DNA of 24,000 nucleotides. Origin: Coriobacteriales bacterium (GTDB taxonomy: Bacteria > Actinomycetota > Coriobacteriia > Coriobacteriales > CADBOM01). Of this stretch, positions 4,319 to 16,800 are shown one piece after another (the first letter of the stretch is position 1; every line of letters starts with the position of its first letter). The stretch is from positions 536,778 through 560,777 of the forward strand of contig CAXXJK010000005.1 of the NCBI GenBank assembly GCA_963665595.2, in the 5' to 3' direction. Below the pieces are notes generated by a model. That model was not told where the DNA came from. It worked only from the letters and a program-made list of their open reading frames with translations, and did not search any database. The position numbers were made by a program, and so were the translations under genes.

Positions 4319-4585
4319 GAATACAATTCAAGATGAGTCAAACTAAAATTTATAATATGTATAGCAAAATTTATATAAACTCAATAAAAGTATCGATTTA
4401 TAATTATTAAAAATTTGATTTGTGTGCAAAAGATGATACTGCCAGAATGAGTATCATCGCGATGGAAACTAATCCTATTATACGGTTCATAGACTACTAA
4501 AATATTGCGATTTGATGCGCGTGCAAGTGGGGTGAACTCGGGCAGCGAGCATGCGGCTTGAGTGTTGTGTATAGGAGGAAAGACA

Positions 4586-7468
4586 ATGAGAACCAAACGT
4601 ACTTCATGGGCTTCAAAATTTGTTGCCATTTTCGTGACGGTCGTGATGGTAACGTCCCTTGTTCCCGTCTCATATGCTTCAGGACAAACAGCTACGGTCA
4701 CTTCTCAGCCAACAGTGGCAGCGGAGAGCACACTGAGTTCGAGCACACTGAGTTCGAGCACACAGTCTGGCGGAACCGAGACCGTAGCAATAACTCAAGA
4801 TGTGGGCCAGACATCGCTTGACGCACAATCTGATCTGACGGCTATGGGTGTTAATCCGTTTCTGACCACCTATACGCAACAGACTAATTCTACCGTTGTT
4901 ACCGTAACCATACCCAATTATGACAATCTTATTGTACTAGGGGCAACATCAGTTGTTGTTGAGGTCACGATGAGCTATGACGGAGTAACCACCCGTGATG
5001 TTCAGTTCAAGAAATCTCTCTCAAGTCTTTCTGGCGGAGATCATAGTTTCACTGTGGACTTTACTACGTATGGCAAATTTACTGTTGATACCAAATACTA
5101 CAATGGTACCTCTATCATGAGTTATTCTCAGGAAACAAAAGGTATCACTGCTGCTGAATACAATATCGCACCATTAGGATCCACCTTTCCGGTAACGTTG
5201 TTCTCACTTTCTCTTTGGGATATCACTAAGAACTCAAGTGGTAATGTCGTTCCAACGATTACACTTCTTGAGCGGCCTACGGCGTACAATTGGGACTGTC
5301 TTCCGAATGGTGTCTACTCTCTTCCCTATATAACAGAAGATGAAGCTGCAAACGCAGGTAGCTGGATGTTCAAGCAGAAATATGCGGCCGTCATGGATGC
5401 CTATGTACGTGATCTCTATGAACTAAGCCCCGATTCAAAATTCAATTTCTACTTCGACGATTTCTTTGTTGGTCTCATACAGTCTGAAATCTATGCGAAC
5501 AAAATTCCCTCAAGCCAATACACCATTAAGTTACTTTCTGATGGCGGGTTTAGTGCTTCCTCATTCCAGAGAACATACACGACGGCCAATGCTAGCGATG
5601 TACAAACGAGCTTGATCAGCAGTTGGAACACTGCTAAAGATTATGCGTATGAAACGGGTACGGTTGCTGACGGATTCAGTCAGTATTTCTGTGCTGACTA
5701 CGTATATGCCGCTGTGGCGAGTGAGACGAATATCGAATGGTGGATAGGGCGTAAAGCACTGCTTACCAGCGGAACGAAGGATAACTCTGGGGCGATACTG
5801 ACCGGTGATGGCGATGCTTTTGGTGCTATCGCTCGGAGTAACCCCAAGGTGGTTCAGAAGAGCATAGCAACCATGCTGACTTCCTTGCAGGCAAAAGGCC
5901 CCGATACGGTGGCAGCGTTCAAGGCACTCTATAACTTTAATGATGGATATTTCTCTGAGGCGGCCAAACAGGGCAAGAAGGTCATGCTTTTGCTCGGTGC
6001 TTGGGATGGTAGGAGCATGCCGATCGAGATTACCGATTACGCGCGTTTCGCCGAGACCTACTACGGCAGCGATTATCTCTACTACTATAAGGGTCATCCG
6101 GCAACGCCCATGGAGTTATACCCGGCATTTGCTACGGGACTTGACGAGATAGGGGTTACGCCTATAGATGCGTCGATCGCTGCCGAGATTGTGCTGTTCT
6201 TCAACCCCGATATCTATCTGTCAGGGTTTGCTTCAACGACGTGGCAAAGTGTTTCTGGCGATATGGCTGCCACGCTGTTTGGCATGACGAAAGCCGTTGC
6301 GGCCGCCTCTACCACTAACACTTCTGCGGATACAAATGCGTTCATCTCTCTTGCGGTCTCGTATCCTGATGCGACAGTTCAAGCGCTCTGTACGGCAGGC
6401 AATACCTGCTATGTGGTCGAATTTGCGAACGATATTCTTGCGACGGTCGATTATACGATCGCTATTTGGGACGCAACAAGCAACACATTATCTTATTACA
6501 AACTTGACGGTACTACCTATAGTCTGGTGAGGACCGTTGCTTGGCCGGGTAGTGGTGGCGGCCAAGGAGAGGACAAAGGCCCTATCGAAGATGGTGTCTA
6601 TACCATAAGTTGTAAGGGTACCGAAAGCTCAATGGTTGAAGTCGATAATTCTTCGACCGATGAGGGTGCGAATGTTCAGATTTATACGGATAATTCGACG
6701 AGCGGCGAACGCTTCCGACTAATCTATAAGGGCGATGGTTACTATAACATTCAGAATGTTAATTCTGGCAAAATGCTTGACGTGGAGTGGGCTGGCATGA
6801 CGATGGGCACCAATGTCTGGCAGTATACCGATAATGGATGCGACTCTGAAAAATGGCTTCTTGTTGATACGGGCGATGGGGATAATTCTTACTATCTCGT
6901 CTCTAAATTAAACGGCCTGTATTTGGATCGTTCCTACAATTCAAGTAGTGACGGTACCAACATCATGGTCTGGGCTGGCAATGGGCTTAATAATCAAAAG
7001 TTTTACTTTAATGATACTGAAACGGTAAAATCGGGCACTTATAGCATGCACTCAGGACTTGATGAAGACAAAGTAGTAGACATTCAGTGGAATTCAACGG
7101 ATGATGGCGGAAACGTTTGGCTTTATTCTGACTATGGATTTGATAATCAAAAGTTTGTATTTGCCTATGATTCAAATACGGGTTATTACGGGATTCAGAG
7201 TGTGAGTTCTGGTAAGATGCTCGATGTTCAATGGGGCGACAGCGCGTCGGGAACCAACGTATGGCAATATTCTGCCAATGGTCTACCGGCGCAGCAGTGG
7301 AGCATTAAAGCCCGTGAGGACGGAGCCTACATCATCAGTTCAGCCACAGGGGGATGCTGCCTTGATGTTACCAACGCGCAAACTGACGACGGCACAAATA
7401 TTCAGGCGTGGACGCGAAATGAATATCCGTCGCAACAGTGGATATTAGAAGAAATCCTTCCCCTGTAG
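4586..7468 (+). CDS. Secreted multidomain protein: signal peptide, S/T linker, Ig-like beta region, GT80-like (sialyltransferase-fold) core, two C-terminal ricin-type beta-trefoil lectin domains
   Basis: Track ORF 4562..7468. I prefer the ATG at 4586, preceded by TAGGAGGAAAGACA. Signal peptide MRTKRTSWASKFVAIFVTVVMVTSLVPVSYA/SGQ. Core motifs KLLSDGG, LLLGAWDG, YYYKGHPATP, AAEIVLFF, GFASTTW. Six QxW-type subrepeats (ERFRLI, SEKWLL, NQKFYF, NQKFVF, AQQWSI, SQQWIL). A strong terminator follows. Confidence 0.88.
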   Translation: MRTKRTSWASKFVAIFVTVVMVTSLVPVSYASGQTATVTSQPTVAAESTLSSSTLSSSTQSGGTETVAITQDVGQTSLDAQSDLTAMGVNPFLTTYTQQTNSTVVTVTIPNYDNLIVLGATSVVVEVTMSYDGVTTRDVQFKKSLSSLSGGDHSFTVDFTTYGKFTVDTKYYNGTSIMSYSQETKGITAAEYNIAPLGSTFPVTLFSLSLWDITKNSSGNVVPTITLLERPTAYNWDCLPNGVYSLPYITEDEAANAGSWMFKQKYAAVMDAYVRDLYELSPDSKFNFYFDDFFVGLIQSEIYANKIPSSQYTIKLLSDGGFSASSFQRTYTTANASDVQTSLISSWNTAKDYAYETGTVADGFSQYFCADYVYAAVASETNIEWWIGRKALLTSGTKDNSGAILTGDGDAFGAIARSNPKVVQKSIATMLTSLQAKGPDTVAAFKALYNFNDGYFSEAAKQGKKVMLLLGAWDGRSMPIEITDYARFAETYYGSDYLYYYKGHPATPMELYPAFATGLDEIGVTPIDASIAAEIVLFFNPDIYLSGFASTTWQSVSGDMAATLFGMTKAVAAASTTNTSADTNAFISLAVSYPDATVQALCTAGNTCYVVEFANDILATVDYTIAIWDATSNTLSYYKLDGTTYSLVRTVAWPGSGGGQGEDKGPIEDGVYTISCKGTESSMVEVDNSSTDEGANVQIYTDNSTSGERFRLIYKGDGYYNIQNVNSGKMLDVEWAGMTMGTNVWQYTDNGCDSEKWLLVDTGDGDNSYYLVSKLNGLYLDRSYNSSSDGTNIMVWAGNGLNNQKFYFNDTETVKSGTYSMHSGLDEDKVVDIQWNSTDDGGNVWLYSDYGFDNQKFVFAYDSNTGYYGIQSVSSGKMLDVQWGDSASGTNVWQYSANGLPAQQWSIKAREDGAYIISSATGGCCLDVTNAQTDDGTNIQAWTRNEYPSQQWILEEILPL
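4728..4765 (+). repeat. 15-bp in-frame tandem repeat (AGCACACTGAGTTCG x2.5) encoding STLSS repeats in the post-signal linker
   Basis: Read directly: units at 4728-4742 and 4743-4757, partial third unit 4758-4765. Confidence 0.85.
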
Positions 7469-7697: not shown

Positions 7698-8045
7698 TTA
7701 TGCGGTTGTCATAGTATCGCTGCGAGTAATGGACTGGCCAATTTCCTTTTCAAAAAGGATATATCGTTTTACTCGATCCTTCGAGTCTTCATTTAAGGAT
7801 ATGATGGAGTAATAGATATCTTTAGCGTCGTGGTCTCGTTCTCGATCAAAGAGTTCGTCTATCGATATATTCAATGCCTCACAGATGCGCGGCACGATTT
7901 CTATGTCAATTGAGTTTTTTCCATTGAGCCAGTTTGACACGGCTTGATCGGAAACCCCCATCAGTAGCGCAAAATCTTTTTGCTTCATATTCGTACGGGA
8001 TAGATAGAAATTGAGATTCATTTTGATATCATTCTTCGTCCCCAT
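7698..8045 (-). CDS. XRE-family helix-turn-helix transcriptional regulator (cI-like, HTH plus C-terminal extension)
   Basis: NFYLSRTNMKQKDFALLMGVSDQAVSNWLNGKNSIDIEIVPRICEALNISIDELF is a typical HTH_3 domain. Track start is 8057. The ATG at 8045 has GGAGGAA 5 nt upstream and is preferred. Confidence 0.82.
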   Translation of the reverse strand: MGTKNDIKMNLNFYLSRTNMKQKDFALLMGVSDQAVSNWLNGKNSIDIEIVPRICEALNISIDELFDRERDHDAKDIYYSIISLNEDSKDRVKRYILFEKEIGQSITRSDTMTTA

Positions 8046-8089
8046 GATTTCCTCCATACCAAGTTCCGTTATTATGACTATTTGTTAAT

Positions 8090-8116: not shown

Positions 8117-8452
8117 TAACATTATTAGGTTTAAATATGACATTTGGCACTTTGCGAAATCAAAATGAGAGGATTTTTAATTCAAATTATTAAGTCGTAT
8201 GTACGACACCAGTGGTTATTATCGTTGTTATATTCAGTAATTTTAATATAAAAATAGGCAAACAATTTGCTTTGCTAAATTTTTTCATAAGCATCTACCG
8301 TTGTTCAAGGCAGCGTATCCTTGCTAATGCGTTACTGATGAGAACAAGCAGGGCTTTTATGATCATACTCATTCCCTGATAGGTAGGGGAATAAAGCCTT
8401 CTGTATAGGCGATAGTTTTTGATAACGAATTTGTTTAAGCATGTTTATTGTT

Positions 8453-8480
8453 TTGACTTTTTTCGCAATAGATTTATTAT
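8453..8480 (+). promoter_or_regulatory. Candidate promoter of the small XRE/Cro-like gene (TTGACT-N16-TATTAT)
   Basis: TTGACT at 8453-8458 and TATTAT at 8475-8480. The 11-mer TTTATTATGTT covering this -10 recurs at 8103-8113. Confidence 0.4.
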
Positions 8481-8541
8481 GTTAAACGTAGGAAATAGTT
8501 TCTACTCAAACAGTAGGTCTCTTCGCTGGGTCACTCGAGAA

Positions 8542-8751
8542 ATGACAGTAAGTGGTGATGTCATGATTGTGGACAGAATTTTAGAACATATTAAGCGAAA
8601 GGGAATTAAACAGCGAGCGCTTGCTGAATGTATCGGTGTTTCGCCTCATACGATTTCAGAAATTCTTGCGGGTCGTCGCAAACTTACTGCTGAGGAATAT
8701 GCCGACATATGCCGCTTTCTCGAAGTTCCCTATGATAGGTTCATGAGTTAG
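8542..8751 (+). CDS. Small XRE-family HTH regulator (Cro-like)
   Basis: ILEHIKRKGIKQRALAECIGVSPHTISEILAGRRKLTAEEYADICRFL is an HTH_3 domain. The track ORF starts at TTG 8419, upstream of the predicted promoter and so unlikely. ATG 8542 or ATG 8563 are the plausible starts. Confidence 0.72.
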   Translation: MTVSGDVMIVDRILEHIKRKGIKQRALAECIGVSPHTISEILAGRRKLTAEEYADICRFLEVPYDRFMS

Positions 8752-8925: not shown

Positions 8926-9702
8926 CTACATGGTTGGCAGCGCTTCTGACAGTAAGATGATCCAAGTTGAAATAGCAAGGGCGGGAGCGAAGGGAAACGT
9001 ATGAGAGTTATCCAGCAGGGGATGAATCAACGACTTCATAATATCTTGAATGATGCTTAGAATACAGGCGATGACCAGAGTAGAGATAATCGGGGATATA
9101 CCGAGAAAGAGGCCGATGACGAGAACTAGTTTTATATCGCCGCCGCCAATCCCTTGTTTGCCCGTGAGCTTCTTGAATGCAAAAGCAAGCATCGTAAGCA
9201 GAATGCTCATAGCAAGCCCGCCAAATAGGCTTTCGGCGATTGACGGCATAGGGGCAAGTTTTCCTGTTCCAGAAATGAACTGACACATACTTATGTCTTG
9301 TGAGATGCTGCAGTAGAAAATTGAGACAAACCCCCAGACACAGATACCCATGATGACGAGGCCATTGGGAATCATGCGCACTGTAAAGTCAATTGTCGAA
9401 GCGGCAAGCAGTATACAGCCGAGAGCGCATAGCGAGATACCTCTGACAGTGAGTCCGTAGATAACGATGATACTAATCAAGTAGAGCCCATAGATAAAAC
9501 CTTCGACTATCGGCGCGCAGCCGACATTACTTCTGGCTTCCTCTTTTGTTTGGATGTAGTGCGTTGCTCGGTGGTAGATCAGCATACCCACACCAAAGCC
9601 AAACAGCCCGATCACAATAAGAGACACTGGTGAGGAAAGCCACGAGGATCCGACTCCTATAGTAATAAGCGGCATGATCGCTCTCTTTCGGTGCTGGCGC
9701 AT
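8926..9702 (-). CDS. A24-family prepilin (type IV leader) peptidase, TadV/CpaA-like short form
   Basis: 258 aa, polytopic. First Asp motif STIDFTVRMIPNG, second Asp motif GIGGGDIKLVLVIG. No N-terminal Cys-rich (zinc) domain. An alternative start (MPLITIG) lies at 9675. Confidence 0.8.
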   Translation of the reverse strand: MRQHRKRAIMPLITIGVGSSWLSSPVSLIVIGLFGFGVGMLIYHRATHYIQTKEEARSNVGCAPIVEGFIYGLYLISIIVIYGLTVRGISLCALGCILLAASTIDFTVRMIPNGLVIMGICVWGFVSIFYCSISQDISMCQFISGTGKLAPMPSIAESLFGGLAMSILLTMLAFAFKKLTGKQGIGGGDIKLVLVIGLFLGISPIISTLVIACILSIIQDIMKSLIHPLLDNSHTFPFAPALAISTWIILLSEALPTM

Positions 9703-9972: not shown

Positions 9973-10749
9973 TTGGCGGTGATTTTTGACGGAAACTTTA
10001 ACAAGCAGGGGAAAGACCGCACTCCTTTCTCCTCCTTTTTCAAAGAGGCACAGGCCTCTTTGTTTGAGGTGATTGCCCCCACTCGTTGTATTGTCTGTGA
10101 GTCTCCCGGTCCTCTTCTCTGCGATCATTGCGCTGCTACTTTGACGGGAATTGATAATAAAGCCGCTTGCGTACGGTGCGGTGCTCCTTTTGGGGGCGTG
10201 ATCTGCGCAGAGTGTCAGCGTCCTGAGGGGTTGCGTCTGTTTTCATTTGATGCGGCTCGAGCAAGATTTGTTTTTGACCAGACGAGCGCTCGTATAGTTA
10301 AAGCGTTCAAAGATGAGGGCGAGCGTCGTTTGGCGACTATCATGGCCCGCTATCTTGTCGATGCTGCGGCAGAGTGGACGCTTTCCGCTGATTTTGTCGT
10401 GCCCATTCCGGCTACTCGTCAGGCATTGCGCGCACGTGATTTTGATCATATGGCTTTAGTCGCCGCGGAGTTTTCAGTTATGACAGGAGTTTCCGCGCTC
10501 GATTGCTTGGTGAAAACAGACACCCATGATCAGCGAGGGCTTGATCGCGCCCGACGTCAAGAGAATATGGCAGGGAGTTTCTCTCTCGGCTTGCCTTCTC
10601 TTGCGGCTTTGTTGCGGATACGAGCTCCCAGAATTATTCTTATTGATGACGTATTCACTACGGGTGCGACACTTGATGCGGCAGCCGCTACTCTTCGAAA
10701 CGCAGGTGTTCGGTCGGTCTTCGTCGTTGTTTTGTGTCGCGTATGGTAA
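9973..10749 (+). CDS. comFC: ComF-family protein / amidophosphoribosyltransferase-like (ComFC)
   Basis: N-terminal double CxxC zinc-finger region (CIVCESPGPLLCDHC ... CVRCGAPFGGVICAEC). C-terminal PRTase motif RIILIDDVFTTGATL. TTG start preceded by GAAAGGGGG. Confidence 0.85.
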   Translation: MAVIFDGNFNKQGKDRTPFSSFFKEAQASLFEVIAPTRCIVCESPGPLLCDHCAATLTGIDNKAACVRCGAPFGGVICAECQRPEGLRLFSFDAARARFVFDQTSARIVKAFKDEGERRLATIMARYLVDAAAEWTLSADFVVPIPATRQALRARDFDHMALVAAEFSVMTGVSALDCLVKTDTHDQRGLDRARRQENMAGSFSLGLPSLAALLRIRAPRIILIDDVFTTGATLDAAAATLRNAGVRSVFVVVLCRVW

Positions 10750-10807
10750 ATGCTGTGTTTACCTATTTGCTCTCCTGCGTAAAATGATTATCTGCTAGAA
10801 TTTACCC

Positions 10808-11093
10808 GTTCCTCCGAGTTTGTGGTTGCGAAAGCGTAATAGCTTTTTAGTCCATGGCAGATGCGGTCAAAAGGATCCACGTAACTTCCCATGCAAATGG
10901 GATCGAGCATGGCGCATCTTAGGGGTTAGTCGTACCGTCCGGTTATTCAGGAACATACGTTCCCCGGGCGAGAGGGCAAGTAGTGAGATAGTATCAGGCG
11001 AAAGTTCCGGTACGCGAGTGTGGGGTCAAATACCAGGTCAATCGGAGGAACACGGTAGACGAGGGGATATAACCGGCTGGAGCCGGTGTTTTT
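10808..11093 (+). ncRNA. Candidate stand-alone structured RNA, probably a raiA-motif RNA (comFC-hpf intergenic ncRNA class)
   Basis: Extended -10 TGcTAGAAT at 10793-10801. GTTCCTCCGA (10808-10817) is perfectly complementary to TCGGAGGAAC (11042-11051). Internal hairpins with GNRA loops: GC-GAAA-GC 10828-10835 and CCCAT-GCAA-ATGGG 10888-10901. Also AGATGCG/CGCATCT (10859-65/10913-19) and GGAAC-ATAC-GTTCC (10950-63). Terminator CCGGC-TGGA-GCCGG+TGTTTTT at 11073-11093. No credible ORF. The class call rests on position, not on a covariance-model score. Confidence 0.45.
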
Positions 11094-11097
11094 ACGA

Positions 11098-11940
11098 ATG
11101 AGGTGCTGTAGCTTGAAGAAATTCGTTCGTACACTCGCTTGTATCGCGCTCTGCGTGGTTGTGACGGTAGGACTGGTGGGTTGTGGTCCGACGGGCTCAA
11201 AGGAAATCCCACTCACCCCGCAGATTTCTTCACCAACGATCATAACTAATGGTTATCTGACGGTCGGTGTTGATTCAACATCCGCTCCTTATGCAGGCGA
11301 ACACTCCGGTGCTTTGATTGGTGTCGATGTTGACGTTGCTGCCGCACTCGCCGATCAGCTGGGGCTGAAGCTCAAGGTTGTTGATATTAATTCAACAAAT
11401 GCAGCCGATCAGCTTACCTCAAATAAGGTTGATACGGTTATGAGTTGGAATAGCACCGGTAACACATCTACTCAGGTGACAAAAGTAGGAACATATCTCA
11501 CAGATGGCACGGCTCTTTTTGGCATCTCAGTGAGCGGGGATCTTCAGGTTAACAAATCCTCATTGCAGGGGGTCAAGATTGGCGCTCAGGCAGGCTCAAT
11601 ATCGGTTACGACAGCAGGCACCTACTGTGGCTACAATAACGTCGTTACCTATGGAACGTTGAGCGAGGCGTTTGCTGCTCTTGAGTCTGGCGCGGTAACC
11701 TATGTTGCTTGTAACGCAGTAGCGGGATCATACTTGGCTAGTTCCTACGGTGACATCGCGTATGCCACCATGCTCGATTCTCCGACCAATGTAACTCTTG
11801 CGGTTGCAGCTACGGATACCGACCTGCAGAAGGCTCTGAGCGGTGCTTTAGCTACGATCAAGAGTAATGGCGTGCTTAAGGTGAGCGTTGCTAAGTGGAT
11901 TGGTATGTCGACGGCCAGTAAGCTGATACCCACCAGCTAG
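11098..11940 (+). CDS. ABC-transporter substrate-binding lipoprotein, family 3 (polar amino-acid type)
   Basis: Lipoprotein signal KKFVRTLACIALCVVVTVGLVGC. SBP_bac_3-like core (LTVGVDSTSAPYAGEHSGALIGVDVDVAAALADQLGLKLKVVDI...). Start ambiguous: ATG 11098, or TTG 11113 with GAGGTG 7 nt upstream. The track's GTG 11086 lies inside the terminator stem. Confidence 0.8.
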   Translation: MRCCSLKKFVRTLACIALCVVVTVGLVGCGPTGSKEIPLTPQISSPTIITNGYLTVGVDSTSAPYAGEHSGALIGVDVDVAAALADQLGLKLKVVDINSTNAADQLTSNKVDTVMSWNSTGNTSTQVTKVGTYLTDGTALFGISVSGDLQVNKSSLQGVKIGAQAGSISVTTAGTYCGYNNVVTYGTLSEAFAALESGAVTYVACNAVAGSYLASSYGDIAYATMLDSPTNVTLAVAATDTDLQKALSGALATIKSNGVLKVSVAKWIGMSTASKLIPTS

Positions 11941-11996
11941 CAAGAATTCTGCGCGAAAAGTAACAGTCTTTTTGGCAACTATATACAAAATTTAAG

Positions 11997-12034
11997 AAAC
12001 GTCTCTGGTGGCGAAACATCAGGGACGTTTTCGT
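11997..12034 (+). terminator. Intrinsic terminator after the binding-protein gene
   Basis: AACGTCTCTGGTG pairs with CATCAGGGACGTT (two G-U pairs), followed by TTTCG. Confidence 0.7.
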
Positions 12035-12292
12035 GCCAGGTGCATTCCGTTGGCACCATTTAAGACAAAAGGTTTATTCGATTGTAGGCTTGGGGAATTG
12101 AGAGAACTGATATCGCTACATCCATGAATGCCACTTGACCAGCGTAAATGCACCAAAGGTATTTGTGAATGGCTTCATAGTTTTACGAGGGGACTTCAGA
12201 AGAACTTTTCGAAAAAGAGGTTCTTCCTCTACCACCGAGATTGCATGGAGTATACTTTGAGCACCGGCAAACCCTTCGACTAGGAGGTCCTC

Positions 12293-12862
12293 ATGGATAT
12301 CACTGTTACTGGTCGCCGTATGGCGACGACCGAAGCACTCAAGGAATATGCCGAGGAAAAAGTATCTGCAGCGATGAAGGTGTTTGACATTACTCCTATG
12401 TCTGCAGAAATAGTTCTCCATGTTGAGAAAAACCCTGCCAACCCAAACCCCGCTGTAGCAGAAATTACCATTCGTGCAAAAAGCCACGTCATTCGCGTGG
12501 AAGAGGCTGAAGAAGATATGTATGCCGCCATTGATGTGGCATCAGCTAAATGCGAACGCCAACTGCGCAAGTTCAAGACGAAAGTAGTCGACAAGAAGAC
12601 ACGCGCAGAAAAACCGTCCGAGGCGTTGGTGCGAGGGAACGCGTCCGCGCTTGATGCCATCGTTGAAGAAATCGAGCGTAACGAAGACGTTGTGCGTGTC
12701 AAAGAGATCGAGTTCATGGCGCTGACTGAGGAAGAGGCCCTGATACAGATCGATTTACTGGGTCATGATTTCTTTGTCTATACTGACAAAATGACCGACG
12801 ACCCTCACTTGCTGTATCGCCGCAAGGATGGAGGTTACGGTCTCATCAAGCCGAAAGCCTGA
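12293..12862 (+). CDS. hpf: Ribosome hibernation-promoting factor, long form (RaiA/HPF family)
   Basis: MDITVTGRRMATTEALKEYAEEKV... is a typical RaiA/HPF N-domain. The C-terminal dimerisation domain (EEEALIQIDLLGHDFFVYTD...YRRKDGGYGLIKP) is present. TAGGAGG SD. Confidence 0.9.
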   Translation: MDITVTGRRMATTEALKEYAEEKVSAAMKVFDITPMSAEIVLHVEKNPANPNPAVAEITIRAKSHVIRVEEAEEDMYAAIDVASAKCERQLRKFKTKVVDKKTRAEKPSEALVRGNASALDAIVEEIERNEDVVRVKEIEFMALTEEEALIQIDLLGHDFFVYTDKMTDDPHLLYRRKDGGYGLIKPKA

Positions 12863-12980
12863 TTTTATTCTTTGACCTGCTTATAGTGTGTTAATATGGG
12901 CACATAGCTATATGATTTGATATCAACTATACATGAAGCAATTAATCGTACTCGGTAGTTGAGAGGGAAGCACCCATACT

Positions 12981-13520
12981 ATGGCAGCTTCAGGCACCAC
13001 AGCTCGGGCAATGAATGGAAATGCTGCGCGGACTTCGCGAGCGTCCGCTTCGCGTGCGACTTCAAGTAAGGCCGCGCAGCGTTTTGCTAAGGATCGTCGA
13101 GCTGTCCACGAAAAAGCGAATCGCCAATCTCATCTGATTCATCTCGGTATAGTTTTTGGTGGACTTTTCATATGTTTGGTATGCGCGGTAGTTATTCTCT
13201 ATCCTAATGCGCGGGTCTATTATTCCGCTTGGCGTGATTATTCAAACGTACATGCAGAACTCACGGCCGTGAGCACTCGTAATACGACCATACAGACACG
13301 TATCGACAATCTTAATACCGAAGCAGGTATTGAAGATCGCGCGCGTGAGGAATTTGGTTGGGTCAAGCAAGGAGAGAACGCAGTCAATGTGACCGGCGTT
13401 GAAGCAGACGAGGCCACCTCGGCTTTGCCCGATAAGGTAATTGCAGGATCTGTCCTGGCAGATACGAACTGGGTGGTTGATGAGCTCGACAAATTCTTTG
13501 GATATGTATATAAGGGTTAA
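12981..13520 (+). CDS. ftsB: Septum formation initiator family protein (FtsB/DivIC-like)
   Basis: Basic disordered N-terminus, single TM helix (LGIVFGGLFICLVCAVVILY), coiled coil, and the family-typical IEDRAREEFGWVKQGE motif. Confidence 0.75.
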   Translation: MAASGTTARAMNGNAARTSRASASRATSSKAAQRFAKDRRAVHEKANRQSHLIHLGIVFGGLFICLVCAVVILYPNARVYYSAWRDYSNVHAELTAVSTRNTTIQTRIDNLNTEAGIEDRAREEFGWVKQGENAVNVTGVEADEATSALPDKVIAGSVLADTNWVVDELDKFFGYVYKG

Positions 13521-14692: not shown

Positions 14693-14777
14693 GGGGGCGT
14701 GGCGGAATTGGCAGACGCAGGGGACTTAAAATCCTCCGCCTAACGGCTTGTGAGTTCAAATCTCACCGCCCCTACCA
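14693..14777 (+). tRNA. tRNA-Leu (anticodon TAA), long variable arm, CCA encoded
   Basis: Acceptor GGGGGCG/CGCCCCT (G1-U72 wobble), anticodon arm GGGGA-CTTAAAA-TCCTC, variable arm CGCCTAACGGCTTG, T arm GTGAG-TTCAAAT-CTCAC. Confidence 0.9.
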
Positions 14778-14879
14778 CAGTTCAATGCTACTTGAAATTG
14801 AGTGGCACGCTACTCGTTTCGAGCAGTCGTGACGGTTATCATGCGCACTGCTCCGCTCACGCAGCGAATAAGATATTTC

Positions 14880-14936
14880 GGGAATGAAGCTCTCCCTTGG
14901 TTGATCCAGAACCGCTGTATGCTGATGGCTTCTACA
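14880..14936 (+). promoter_or_regulatory. Fluoride riboswitch (crcB motif)
   Basis: GGGAAUGAAGCUCUCCC ... AACCGC-UGUAU-GCUGAUGGCUUCUAC matches the remembered consensus GGnGAUGnnnnnCnCC ... AACCGCC ... GCUGAUGnCUUCUAC. It sits ~40 nt upstream of crcB. Confidence 0.8.
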
Positions 14937-14978
14937 TAAGAGGTCATGTAATTTGGCTATACGGCGAAAGGGTGGTCT

Positions 14979-15368
14979 GTGCCTACCTTGGTTCTTAATT
15001 GCCTCTATGTGGGCATGGGCGGTGCCCTTGGCACGGTTCTTCGTTATATTATTGGTTTAGTACCTCTCAATGAAACTAATGGGTTTCCTCTGGCAACCCT
15101 GCTTATTAATTTTTCTGGTGCTCTTCTCATAGGCACGATCATTGCCTTTGCCGATTGTAGAGGTGGTTTTGACTCGAGCATTATGCTCTTTTTGAAGATA
15201 GGCCTCTGCGGGGGATTTACCACATTTTCAACATTCTCTCTGGAAACGGTGCAACTTTTAGAAAAGGGCAGCTTTTTTATTGCCGGTTCTTATATTTTCG
15301 CCAGCGTATTTCTTTGTATTGTGGCAATATTTTTTGCACAATGGTTGGTTACCATGATTGTCTCATAA
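14979..15368 (+). CDS. crcB: Fluoride ion channel CrcB/FluC
   Basis: 129 aa, 4 TM. GGALGTVLRY and CGGFTTFSTFSLE signature motifs. GTG start after AAGGGTGG. Confidence 0.9.
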   Translation: MPTLVLNCLYVGMGGALGTVLRYIIGLVPLNETNGFPLATLLINFSGALLIGTIIAFADCRGGFDSSIMLFLKIGLCGGFTTFSTFSLETVQLLEKGSFFIAGSYIFASVFLCIVAIFFAQWLVTMIVS

Positions 15369-16572: not shown

Positions 16573-16600
16573 TTGATATAATGCTGCAAATTCCTATAAT
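16573..16600 (+). promoter_or_regulatory. Near-consensus sigma70-type promoter (TTGATA-N16-TATAAT) ahead of the tRNA-like gene
   Basis: TTGATA at 16573-16578, TATAAT at 16595-16600. A second TATAAT lies at 16577-16582. Confidence 0.5.
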
Positions 16601-16627
16601 CGTCCAATGCAGTGTTTCAAACAACAC

Positions 16628-16701
16628 GCCACAGTAGCTCAGCTAGGCAAGAGCGCCCTCTGAAATGGGGGAGGTCGCGGGTTCGAATCCCGCCTGCGTA
16701 T
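16628..16701 (+). tRNA. tRNA-like gene with a Phe(GAA)-type anticodon loop but non-canonical acceptor and anticodon stems (pseudo-tRNA or tRNA-like ncRNA)
   Basis: Canonical TA-GCTC-AGCTAGGCAA-GAGC D arm and GCGGG-TTCGAAT-CCCGC T arm, loop CTGAAAT. However, 5' GCCACAG versus 3' CTGCGTA pairs at only 4 of 7 positions, and the 5' anticodon stem strand is one nt short. Confidence 0.5.
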
Positions 16702-16729
16702 ATGACCGCATCACCGTGATGCGTATTTG

Positions 16730-16753
16730 AAAAGCCACCGAAAGGTGGCTTTT
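16730..16753. terminator. Bidirectional intrinsic terminator (tRNA-like gene / peroxiredoxin)
   Basis: AAAAGCCACC-GAAA-GGTGGCTTTT: perfect stem, GNRA loop, A/T tracts on both sides. Confidence 0.8.
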
Positions 16754-16800
16754 CCCGTTGATACTGAAACTCTGTTTCCCCTGCGTACCCCGGAATTATT

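Follow-up and report, generated by a model that had tools for sequence, protein, structure and literature searches.

In a 24,000-nucleotide stretch of DNA from a Coriobacteriales bacterium (GenBank assembly GCA_963665595.2, contig CAXXJK010000005.1, positions 536,778 to 560,777 of the forward strand; hereafter the window), we find that positions 10808-11051 are, with high confidence, the gene for a full-length raiA-motif (ModT) RNA, a widespread bacterial structured RNA. An initial annotation, made from the letters alone, had proposed such an RNA directly after comFC and had named a scan with the Rfam models as the way to check it. When the whole window was searched with the Rfam 15 models, gathering thresholds applied, one raiA match emerged, on the forward strand at 10809-11050. 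Its score of 162.7 bits exceeds the gathering score of 101.3 (E = 2.5e-41), and the match covers the model completely (1-209 of 209 positions), so that the proposal is borne out. The feature is as follows.

10808-11051, forward strand: raiA-motif (ModT) RNA, Rfam RF03072, all-eight-stem subtype

As an annotation this is already known, a known family in its known context, with comFC upstream and binding-protein and raiA/hpf genes downstream, as published (PMC5737381, PMC10861870). Because Coriobacteriia are already among the listed raiA-bearing classes, the annotation matters little by itself and places a known orphan RNA in one more genome. The coupling of this RNA in Coriobacteriia with the gene that follows it, SBP1, is a modest, testable lead on raiA/ModT function.

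We mapped the updated fold, with the helix nomenclature of a 2026 cryo-electron microscopy (cryo-EM) paper (PMC12968392), onto the window. Each published helix has its counterpart here, the optional P2 and P7/P8 and the two pseudoknots among them, and all pairs are standard.

10808-17/11042-51: P1a, 10 base pairs
10818-19: GU bulge
10820-22/11039-41: P1b
10823-26/11032-35: P1c
11036-38: GGU bulge
10830-35/10842-47: P2
10850-53/10873-76: P3a
10856-58/10866-68: P3b
10877-81/11019-23: P4
10887-92/10897-902: P5, with a GCAA loop
10931-35/11010-14: P6
10936-42/10964-70 plus 10950-54/10959-63: P7, long
10974-77/11004-07 and 10983-84/10998-99: P8, with an E-loop formed by AGUA (10979-82) and GAA (11000-02)
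10860-10918, forward strand: pseudoknot PK1, the P3b loop (10860-65) with 10913-18, six Watson-Crick pairs
10910-11028, forward strand: pseudoknot PK2, 10910-11 with 11027-28 (U-A and G-C)

The three-part closing stem (P1a, P1b and P1c, interrupted by the GU and GGU bulges, P1a having the family's length), the core (P3a and P3b around an asymmetric, A-rich AU/AAAA internal loop, P4, PK1 and PK2) and the periphery (P5 and P6, the optional P2, and P7/P8, whose AGUA/GAA E-loop is present in the sequence) are thus all in place and, since every helix is present, the RNA falls in the all-eight-stem subtype, like the Nocardioides RNA solved by cryo-EM. The long-range complementarity that had first drawn attention to the region is exact, GTTCCTCCGA at 10808-10817 being the reverse complement of 11042-11051, and corresponds to P1a. 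The hairpins that the initial annotation had described as GNRA-capped stand only in part: P5 has its GCAA loop, and the other two GAAA runs belong elsewhere in the fold. GCGAAAGC at 10828-35 is a junction followed by the 5′ strand of P2, where a GAAAGC/GCUUUU pairing is supported by covariation, and the GAAA at 11000-03 provides the 3′ strand of an internal-loop motif, the P8 E-loop.

The closest structural subtype is the raiA RNA of Nocardioides sp. Iso805N, 253 nucleotides long, with all eight stems and known by cryo-EM (PMC12968392). The two have in common P1a/b/c with GU and GGU bulges, the kinked P3a/P3b with the AU/AAAA loop, P4, P5, P6, a PK1 of 6 base pairs, PK2, P2, a long P7 and a P8 with an E-loop, and both systems belong to the phylum Actinomycetota and have comFC upstream and binding-protein and hpf genes downstream. 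They differ in that P1b of the window begins with U-A instead of C-G, a compensatory change, and in the linker between PK1 and P6, which reads UUAGGGGUUA in the window where the family consensus is UUAGA(C/A)GUAA.

Relatives came from two samples. An hpf-anchored scan with one genome per species gave 74 loci (best HPF identity 69%), most of whose titled records are Coriobacteriia, from Coriobacteriales or Eggerthellales, and the RNA lies within 10 kb of hpf in 15 of these loci. Some matched records bear the titles 'Bacteroidaceae' and 'Prevotella' and look like mis-binned contigs. The second sample comprises at least 120 metagenome loci collected with a DNA pattern from the P3/P4 region, all of which contain the RNA by profile search; metagenome counts below refer to the loci listed from this sample. 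Neither the genome sample nor the listed metagenome matches held a relative of the window RNA at 85% identity or more, and a metagenome scan via the binding protein gave no closer relatives.

The same family was found at the same position in the 8 relatives checked with Rfam, at 133-164 bits. When the window and 15 Coriobacteriia relatives are aligned, standard pairs occupy 98.7% of pair cells, compared with 31-47% when the partners are slid, and 25 of the 59 pairs show changes on both sides, values that none of 500 shuffles reached; the conservation and covariation in related Coriobacteriia that the initial annotation had suggested looking for are therefore there. Both-side changes affect all 6 pairs of P2, and 10 of the 13 pairs of P1a/b covary. 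Of the pseudoknots, PK1 is paired in 100% of cells with 2 covarying pairs, and PK2 in 93.8% with one, a U-A that becomes C-G in two relatives. In P3 and P4, pairs show either no change or a change in one partner alone, and the P2, P5 and P7 arms form hairpins in every relative though their sequences differ. P1c, a stem that is invariant within these 16 sequences, reads GUGG...CCAG in the window and its genome relatives and GUAG...CUAG in many metagenome copies (L075-L194), a compensatory change from G-C to A-U.

Two further elements frame the RNA.

10793-10801, forward strand: extended -10 promoter TGcTAGAAT (TGCTAGAAT), 6 nucleotides upstream of P1a
11072-11093, forward strand: intrinsic terminator, ACCGGC-UGGA-GCCGGU followed by GUUUUU

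The extended -10 box is where the initial annotation had placed it, and its position is conserved: TGnTAnnnT occurs at the same place in 16 of 16 genome loci and in 106 of the 109 metagenome loci listed, where it ends 7-9 nucleotides before the first base of P1a. This conserved position is the evidence for a promoter, rather than the motif alone, as TGNTANAAT, with 3 occurrences in the window and 3.6 expected, is not enriched, for which reason motif counting was rejected as promoter evidence. The initial annotation had warned that a 10-bp complement is not rare by chance, and rightly so, since neither that helix nor the -10 motif is significant singly; significance rests on the covariance-model score, the covariation and the conserved position of the -10 box, which are far beyond chance. 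A scan also returned another promoter, TTTACC-16-TAAAAT at 10758-10785; we prefer the extended -10 at 10793-10801, since this is the box whose place before P1 is conserved.

The terminator reported in the initial annotation is likewise real. It begins 21 nucleotides downstream of the RNA and consists of a 6-bp stem with 5 G-C pairs (11072-77/11082-87), the loop UGGA and a U tract (TTTTT at 11089-93). By this arrangement, transcription driven by the housekeeping sigma factor would begin with the first base of P1a, at about 10808, and the RNA would fold into a compact pseudoknotted core of P3, P4, PK1 and PK2 with a protruding P1 arm, as in the cryo-EM structures. Termination at 11093 would then be the fate of most transcripts and would leave a stable RNA of about 285 nucleotides whose terminator hairpin would extend from P1, as in the long isoform of ModT in C. 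difficile. That isoform, ModT(L) (260 nucleotides, PMC11706538), similarly has a housekeeping-type promoter before P1 and an intrinsic terminator soon after it, a placement from which the mature window RNA would carry an extra 3′ stem-loop; in C. difficile the extra stem-loop stabilises ModT(L) (PMC11706538). Unlike C. difficile ModT, which has two termination sites and two isoforms, the window shows one terminator, and this terminator abuts the ribosome-binding site of the binding-protein gene.

How such an RNA might work is suggested by its relatives. In two clostridial species knock-out phenotypes were complemented in trans, and the high abundance and stability of the RNA and a long, terminator-bearing isoform are documented (PMC10861870, PMC11706538). 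KhpA/KhpB bind raiA RNA in vitro with a Kd of ~2 uM, and an exposed linker has been proposed as their binding site (PMC12968392). The corresponding segment of the window is the following.

10919-10928, forward strand: exposed single-stranded linker UUAGGGGUUA, between PK1 and P6

By homology with Clostridia, the window RNA may act in trans as an abundant, housekeeping-like RNA that tunes the transition from growth to stationary phase, probably via protein partners on the exposed, conserved linker. The relatives' linker is mostly UUAGG(G/U)GUAA, and the G at its fifth position, 10923 in the window, is common to most of the Coriobacteriia relatives examined here.

The genes on either side of the RNA are these.

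9973-10749, forward strand: comFC-like gene (ComF family match), with a double zinc ribbon and a phosphoribosyltransferase domain
11113-11940, forward strand: SBP1, which encodes a divergent solute-binding lipoprotein of family 3 and is conserved as the partner downstream of the RNA
12293-12862, forward strand: hpf/raiA, encoding the long form of the ribosome hibernation-promoting factor with both S30AE domains

The comFC stop codon at 10749 and the hpf start at 12293 agree with the initial annotation. comFC is the upstream neighbour of the RNA, with 44 nucleotides between its stop codon and the -10 box. SBP1 has three candidate starts in frame, GTG 11086, ATG 11098 and TTG 11113, of which the last appears the most plausible: GAGGTG at 11101-06 would serve as its Shine-Dalgarno sequence, and the protein would open with a classic lipoprotein signal (MKKFVRTLAC...LVGC).

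In the initial annotation, SBP1 had been taken for a gene inserted between the RNA and hpf. This does not hold: an SBP1 homologue (32-46% identity) follows the RNA directly and in the same orientation in 14 of the 15 genome loci, and it comes next on the same strand in 96 of the 100 listed metagenome loci with at least 700 nucleotides downstream, or in 47 of 49 clusters at 90% RNA identity, and an association with periplasmic binding-protein genes was already described in 2017 (PMC5737381). In the one exceptional genome locus, L003, comFC and the RNA are inverted together, and the SBP1 homologue adjoins comFC instead. From this locus it had seemed that the RNA stays with comFC, an idea overturned by the larger metagenome set, as comFC, upstream in 78 listed loci, lies on the strand opposite to the RNA in 56 of them, with the binding-protein gene still downstream. 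Nor does hpf keep its place, being found in only 4 of the 21 listed loci with at least 6 kb downstream and absent from 17. By these counts the steadiest linkage in the class is that of the RNA followed by SBP1, rather than hpf or the orientation of comFC. The argument that the RNA must be free-standing because a gene was inserted after it therefore fails, the gene being a constant partner; the conclusion itself, that this is a free-standing RNA and not an hpf leader, stands on the Rfam match, the covariation, the conserved promoter and the literature on trans action (PMC10861870, PMC11706538).

The gene order beyond SBP1 varies. Ten genome loci carry about 3.4 kb more between SBP1 and hpf, which in the two examined (L044 and L047) encodes a second binding protein, a permease and an ATP-binding cassette (ABC) ATPase. 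Periplasmic binding-protein and RaiA domains were named as typical downstream genes in both phyla, Bacillota and Actinomycetota, in the 2017 description (PMC5737381), and ABC transporters are among the neighbours of raiA RNAs in the 2024 survey (PMC10861870). The window has no permease or ATPase homologue, so that its SBP1 is an orphan. With the full-operon relatives as comparison, the window looks reduced rather than interrupted, holding, like L001, L002, L006 and L045, a version with SBP1 only. Among 30 listed loci with at least 4.5 kb downstream, 6 have the full transporter and hpf, 22 have SBP1 alone and 2 have SBP1 then hpf, the order of the window.

The median spacer from the end of P1 to the start codon of SBP1 is 33-35 nucleotides in the listed metagenome loci (start calls are approximate), and a simple scan detected no canonical terminator in the 14 genome spacers or the 98 listed metagenome spacers examined. 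The published view is of raiA RNAs that lie hundreds of nucleotides from downstream genes, in variable orientation. In the window, the 22-nucleotide terminator hairpin within 11052-11112 looks like an addition to an otherwise class-typical spacer, which without it would measure about 39 nucleotides, near the class median of 33. The window is distinctive only by this hairpin.

Several observations weigh against a free-standing, trans-acting RNA gene of the kind proposed here. In most relatives the RNA lies about 33 nucleotides before the SBP1 start with no terminator between them, so that a purely free-standing gene is not the rule in the class. The minimum-free-energy z-score of the window RNA is only -1.17, and 27 of 200 shuffles fold as well; a weak score is expected of a pseudoknotted RNA, and we rejected thermodynamic folding alone as uninformative, relying instead on the covariance model and covariation. 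The linker keeps its position and length but matches the family consensus UUAGA(C/A)GUAA at 8 of 10 positions, and its U at 10927 is unique to the window, this base being A in all 15 genome relatives and in the consensus. Where the RNA starts and ends is a prediction, as are its abundance and its action in trans. As to partners, the ModT paper reports that earlier analyses in C. difficile had shown no binding of KhpB to ModT (PMC11706538). The clostridial RNA has been reported to be linked to sporulation, aggregation and cyclic di-GMP. To our knowledge Coriobacteriia, unlike C. difficile, do not form spores, and the clostridial phenotypes are for that reason not directly transferable.

The same spacers bear on how SBP1 is expressed. 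Between the terminator and the start codon there are only 5-20 nucleotides, too few to accommodate another promoter downstream of the terminator, and the simplest reading would be that SBP1 is co-transcribed with the RNA from the RNA promoter, in the window via read-through; SBP1, and perhaps hpf, would likely be transcribed in this way. It could then be argued that the RNA is the 5′ part of a single RNA-SBP1(-hpf) transcript, from which the mature RNA is released by processing after P1, and that the terminator is recent and only lowers downstream expression. The short, terminator-free spacers of most relatives leave no room for a second promoter, the conserved promoter lies directly before P1, and the window shows neither a terminator-like site after SBP1 (11941-12292) nor, in a simple scan, a forward-strand promoter in 11900-13000, the region upstream of hpf included, all of which agree with one transcript. 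The good intrinsic terminator of the window, on the other hand, with its U5 tract, should end most transcripts. We judge this account unlikely, though it deserves to be kept in view; it is compatible with a raiA-motif RNA gene as proposed above and does not exclude it.

Going further, one may suppose that in Coriobacteriia the raiA/ModT RNA and the divergent, usually orphan SBP1 form one conserved transcription unit, in which the RNA is the 5′ end of the SBP1 message and either controls SBP1 in cis or is joined in its function by SBP1, for example as a report of nutrient status, with the window terminator as a lineage-specific valve. We offer this tentatively and consider it rather improbable; if true, whether this prominent orphan RNA works in cis or in trans would have to be asked anew, and genomic linkage would have supplied a first candidate protein partner for it.

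A narrower proposal is that the RNA is a cis-acting leader of SBP1, a riboswitch or attenuator that responds to a signal and controls read-through of the terminator at 11072-11093 or, in the relatives that have no terminator, the start of translation. Rfam itself labels RF03072 'Cis-reg; riboswitch', and the layout resembles that of riboswitch-type 5′ leaders (a likeness in layout only), with a structured RNA, a terminator or short spacer and a transporter-related open reading frame on the same strand, recurring across the class. The steady presence of SBP1, close by and on the same strand, is what a cis target would show, as are its short spacers with no terminator detected; the pairing persists while comFC flips strand or hpf is absent, and the window terminator sits exactly where an expression platform would be. 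Yet the raiA family, unlike riboswitch leaders, acts in trans where examined, has no known ligand, none having been found in vitro (PMC5737381), is reported to be as abundant as housekeeping RNAs, and has a dedicated promoter at its first base. In L003 the RNA is apart from the SBP1 gene, inverted together with comFC, and in L001, L002 and L006 the spacers measure 124-190 nucleotides and contain promoter-like TGnTAnAGT boxes. Nor was an alternative pairing detected in the one pairing model examined, that of the pyrimidine-rich 5′ strand of P1a with the spacer/Shine-Dalgarno region in 67 distinct locus pairs: duplex energies were -7.52 kcal/mol for cognate and -7.64 kcal/mol for non-cognate pairs, and 3529 of 5000 permutations were at least as low, which is no signal. 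Sequestration of the Shine-Dalgarno sequence by the P1a 5′ strand, suggestive by eye in L046, L047 and L049, was rejected on this result, and inspection by eye revealed no convincing anti-terminator for the window hairpin. Given the null duplex result, the trans-complementation in Clostridia and the lack of a ligand in vitro, we regard cis-regulation as very unlikely.

That the element is a 5′ leader regulating hpf, as might be thought from a family named for its position upstream of raiA/hpf (66% of loci; PMC10861870) and from hpf lying downstream on the same strand in the window, is effectively refuted by the anatomy, since 1.2 kb with a terminator and the whole SBP1 gene intervene, hpf is missing near the RNA in most of the listed metagenome loci that extend far enough, and in several Eggerthellales genomes no raiA RNA lies within 10 kb of hpf.

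Five loci (L004, L013, L017, L034 and L037) have hpf without the raiA RNA, comFC or SBP1 in the sequence around it, which extends for up to 10 kb on each side; they come from Senegalimassilia anaerobia, an Eggerthella sp., Cryptobacterium-like genomes and an Eggerthellales metagenome-assembled genome, and in them the RNA is either elsewhere or lost. In the window, hpf may be partly co-transcribed with SBP1, from which it is separated by a spacer of 353 nucleotides (11941-12292) with weak promoter-like boxes discernible by eye, TTGACC at 12136-41 and TATACT at 12253-58.

Upstream, comFC is adjoined by a type IV prepilin peptidase gene (Peptidase_A24) on the opposite strand (8926-9702), which fits a competence/pilus neighbourhood. 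Between this gene and a lectin-repeat gene sits a divergent pair of small XRE-family helix-turn-helix regulators, at 7698-8057 on the reverse and 8419-8751 on the forward strand. The lectin-repeat gene (4562-7468, forward strand) encodes a protein of 968 amino acids with five ricin-type beta-trefoil lectin repeats at its C-terminal end, and the N-terminal two thirds of the protein have no Pfam match.

Downstream, the window contains a fluoride riboswitch (RF01734) at 14871-14941 on the forward strand, at 40.3 bits against a gathering score of 34. It lies directly 5′ of a crcB fluoride-channel gene (14979-15368, forward strand), the canonical arrangement, and is immediately preceded by a tRNA-Leu(UAA) at 14693-14777. 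Further on, a tRNA-like element at 16632-16696 (forward strand) matches the Rfam tRNA model with 36.8 bits over model positions 5-66 only, and ARAGORN makes no tRNA call there. Its anticodon loop is CUGAAAU (GAA, Phe-like), its T arm is normal and its acceptor stem is broken by a CA bulge. Flanked within 16574-16754 by an extended -10 box, TGATATAAT at 16574-82, and by a terminator-like hairpin at about 16731-54, the element could be a degenerate or unusual tRNA or a tRNA-like RNA.

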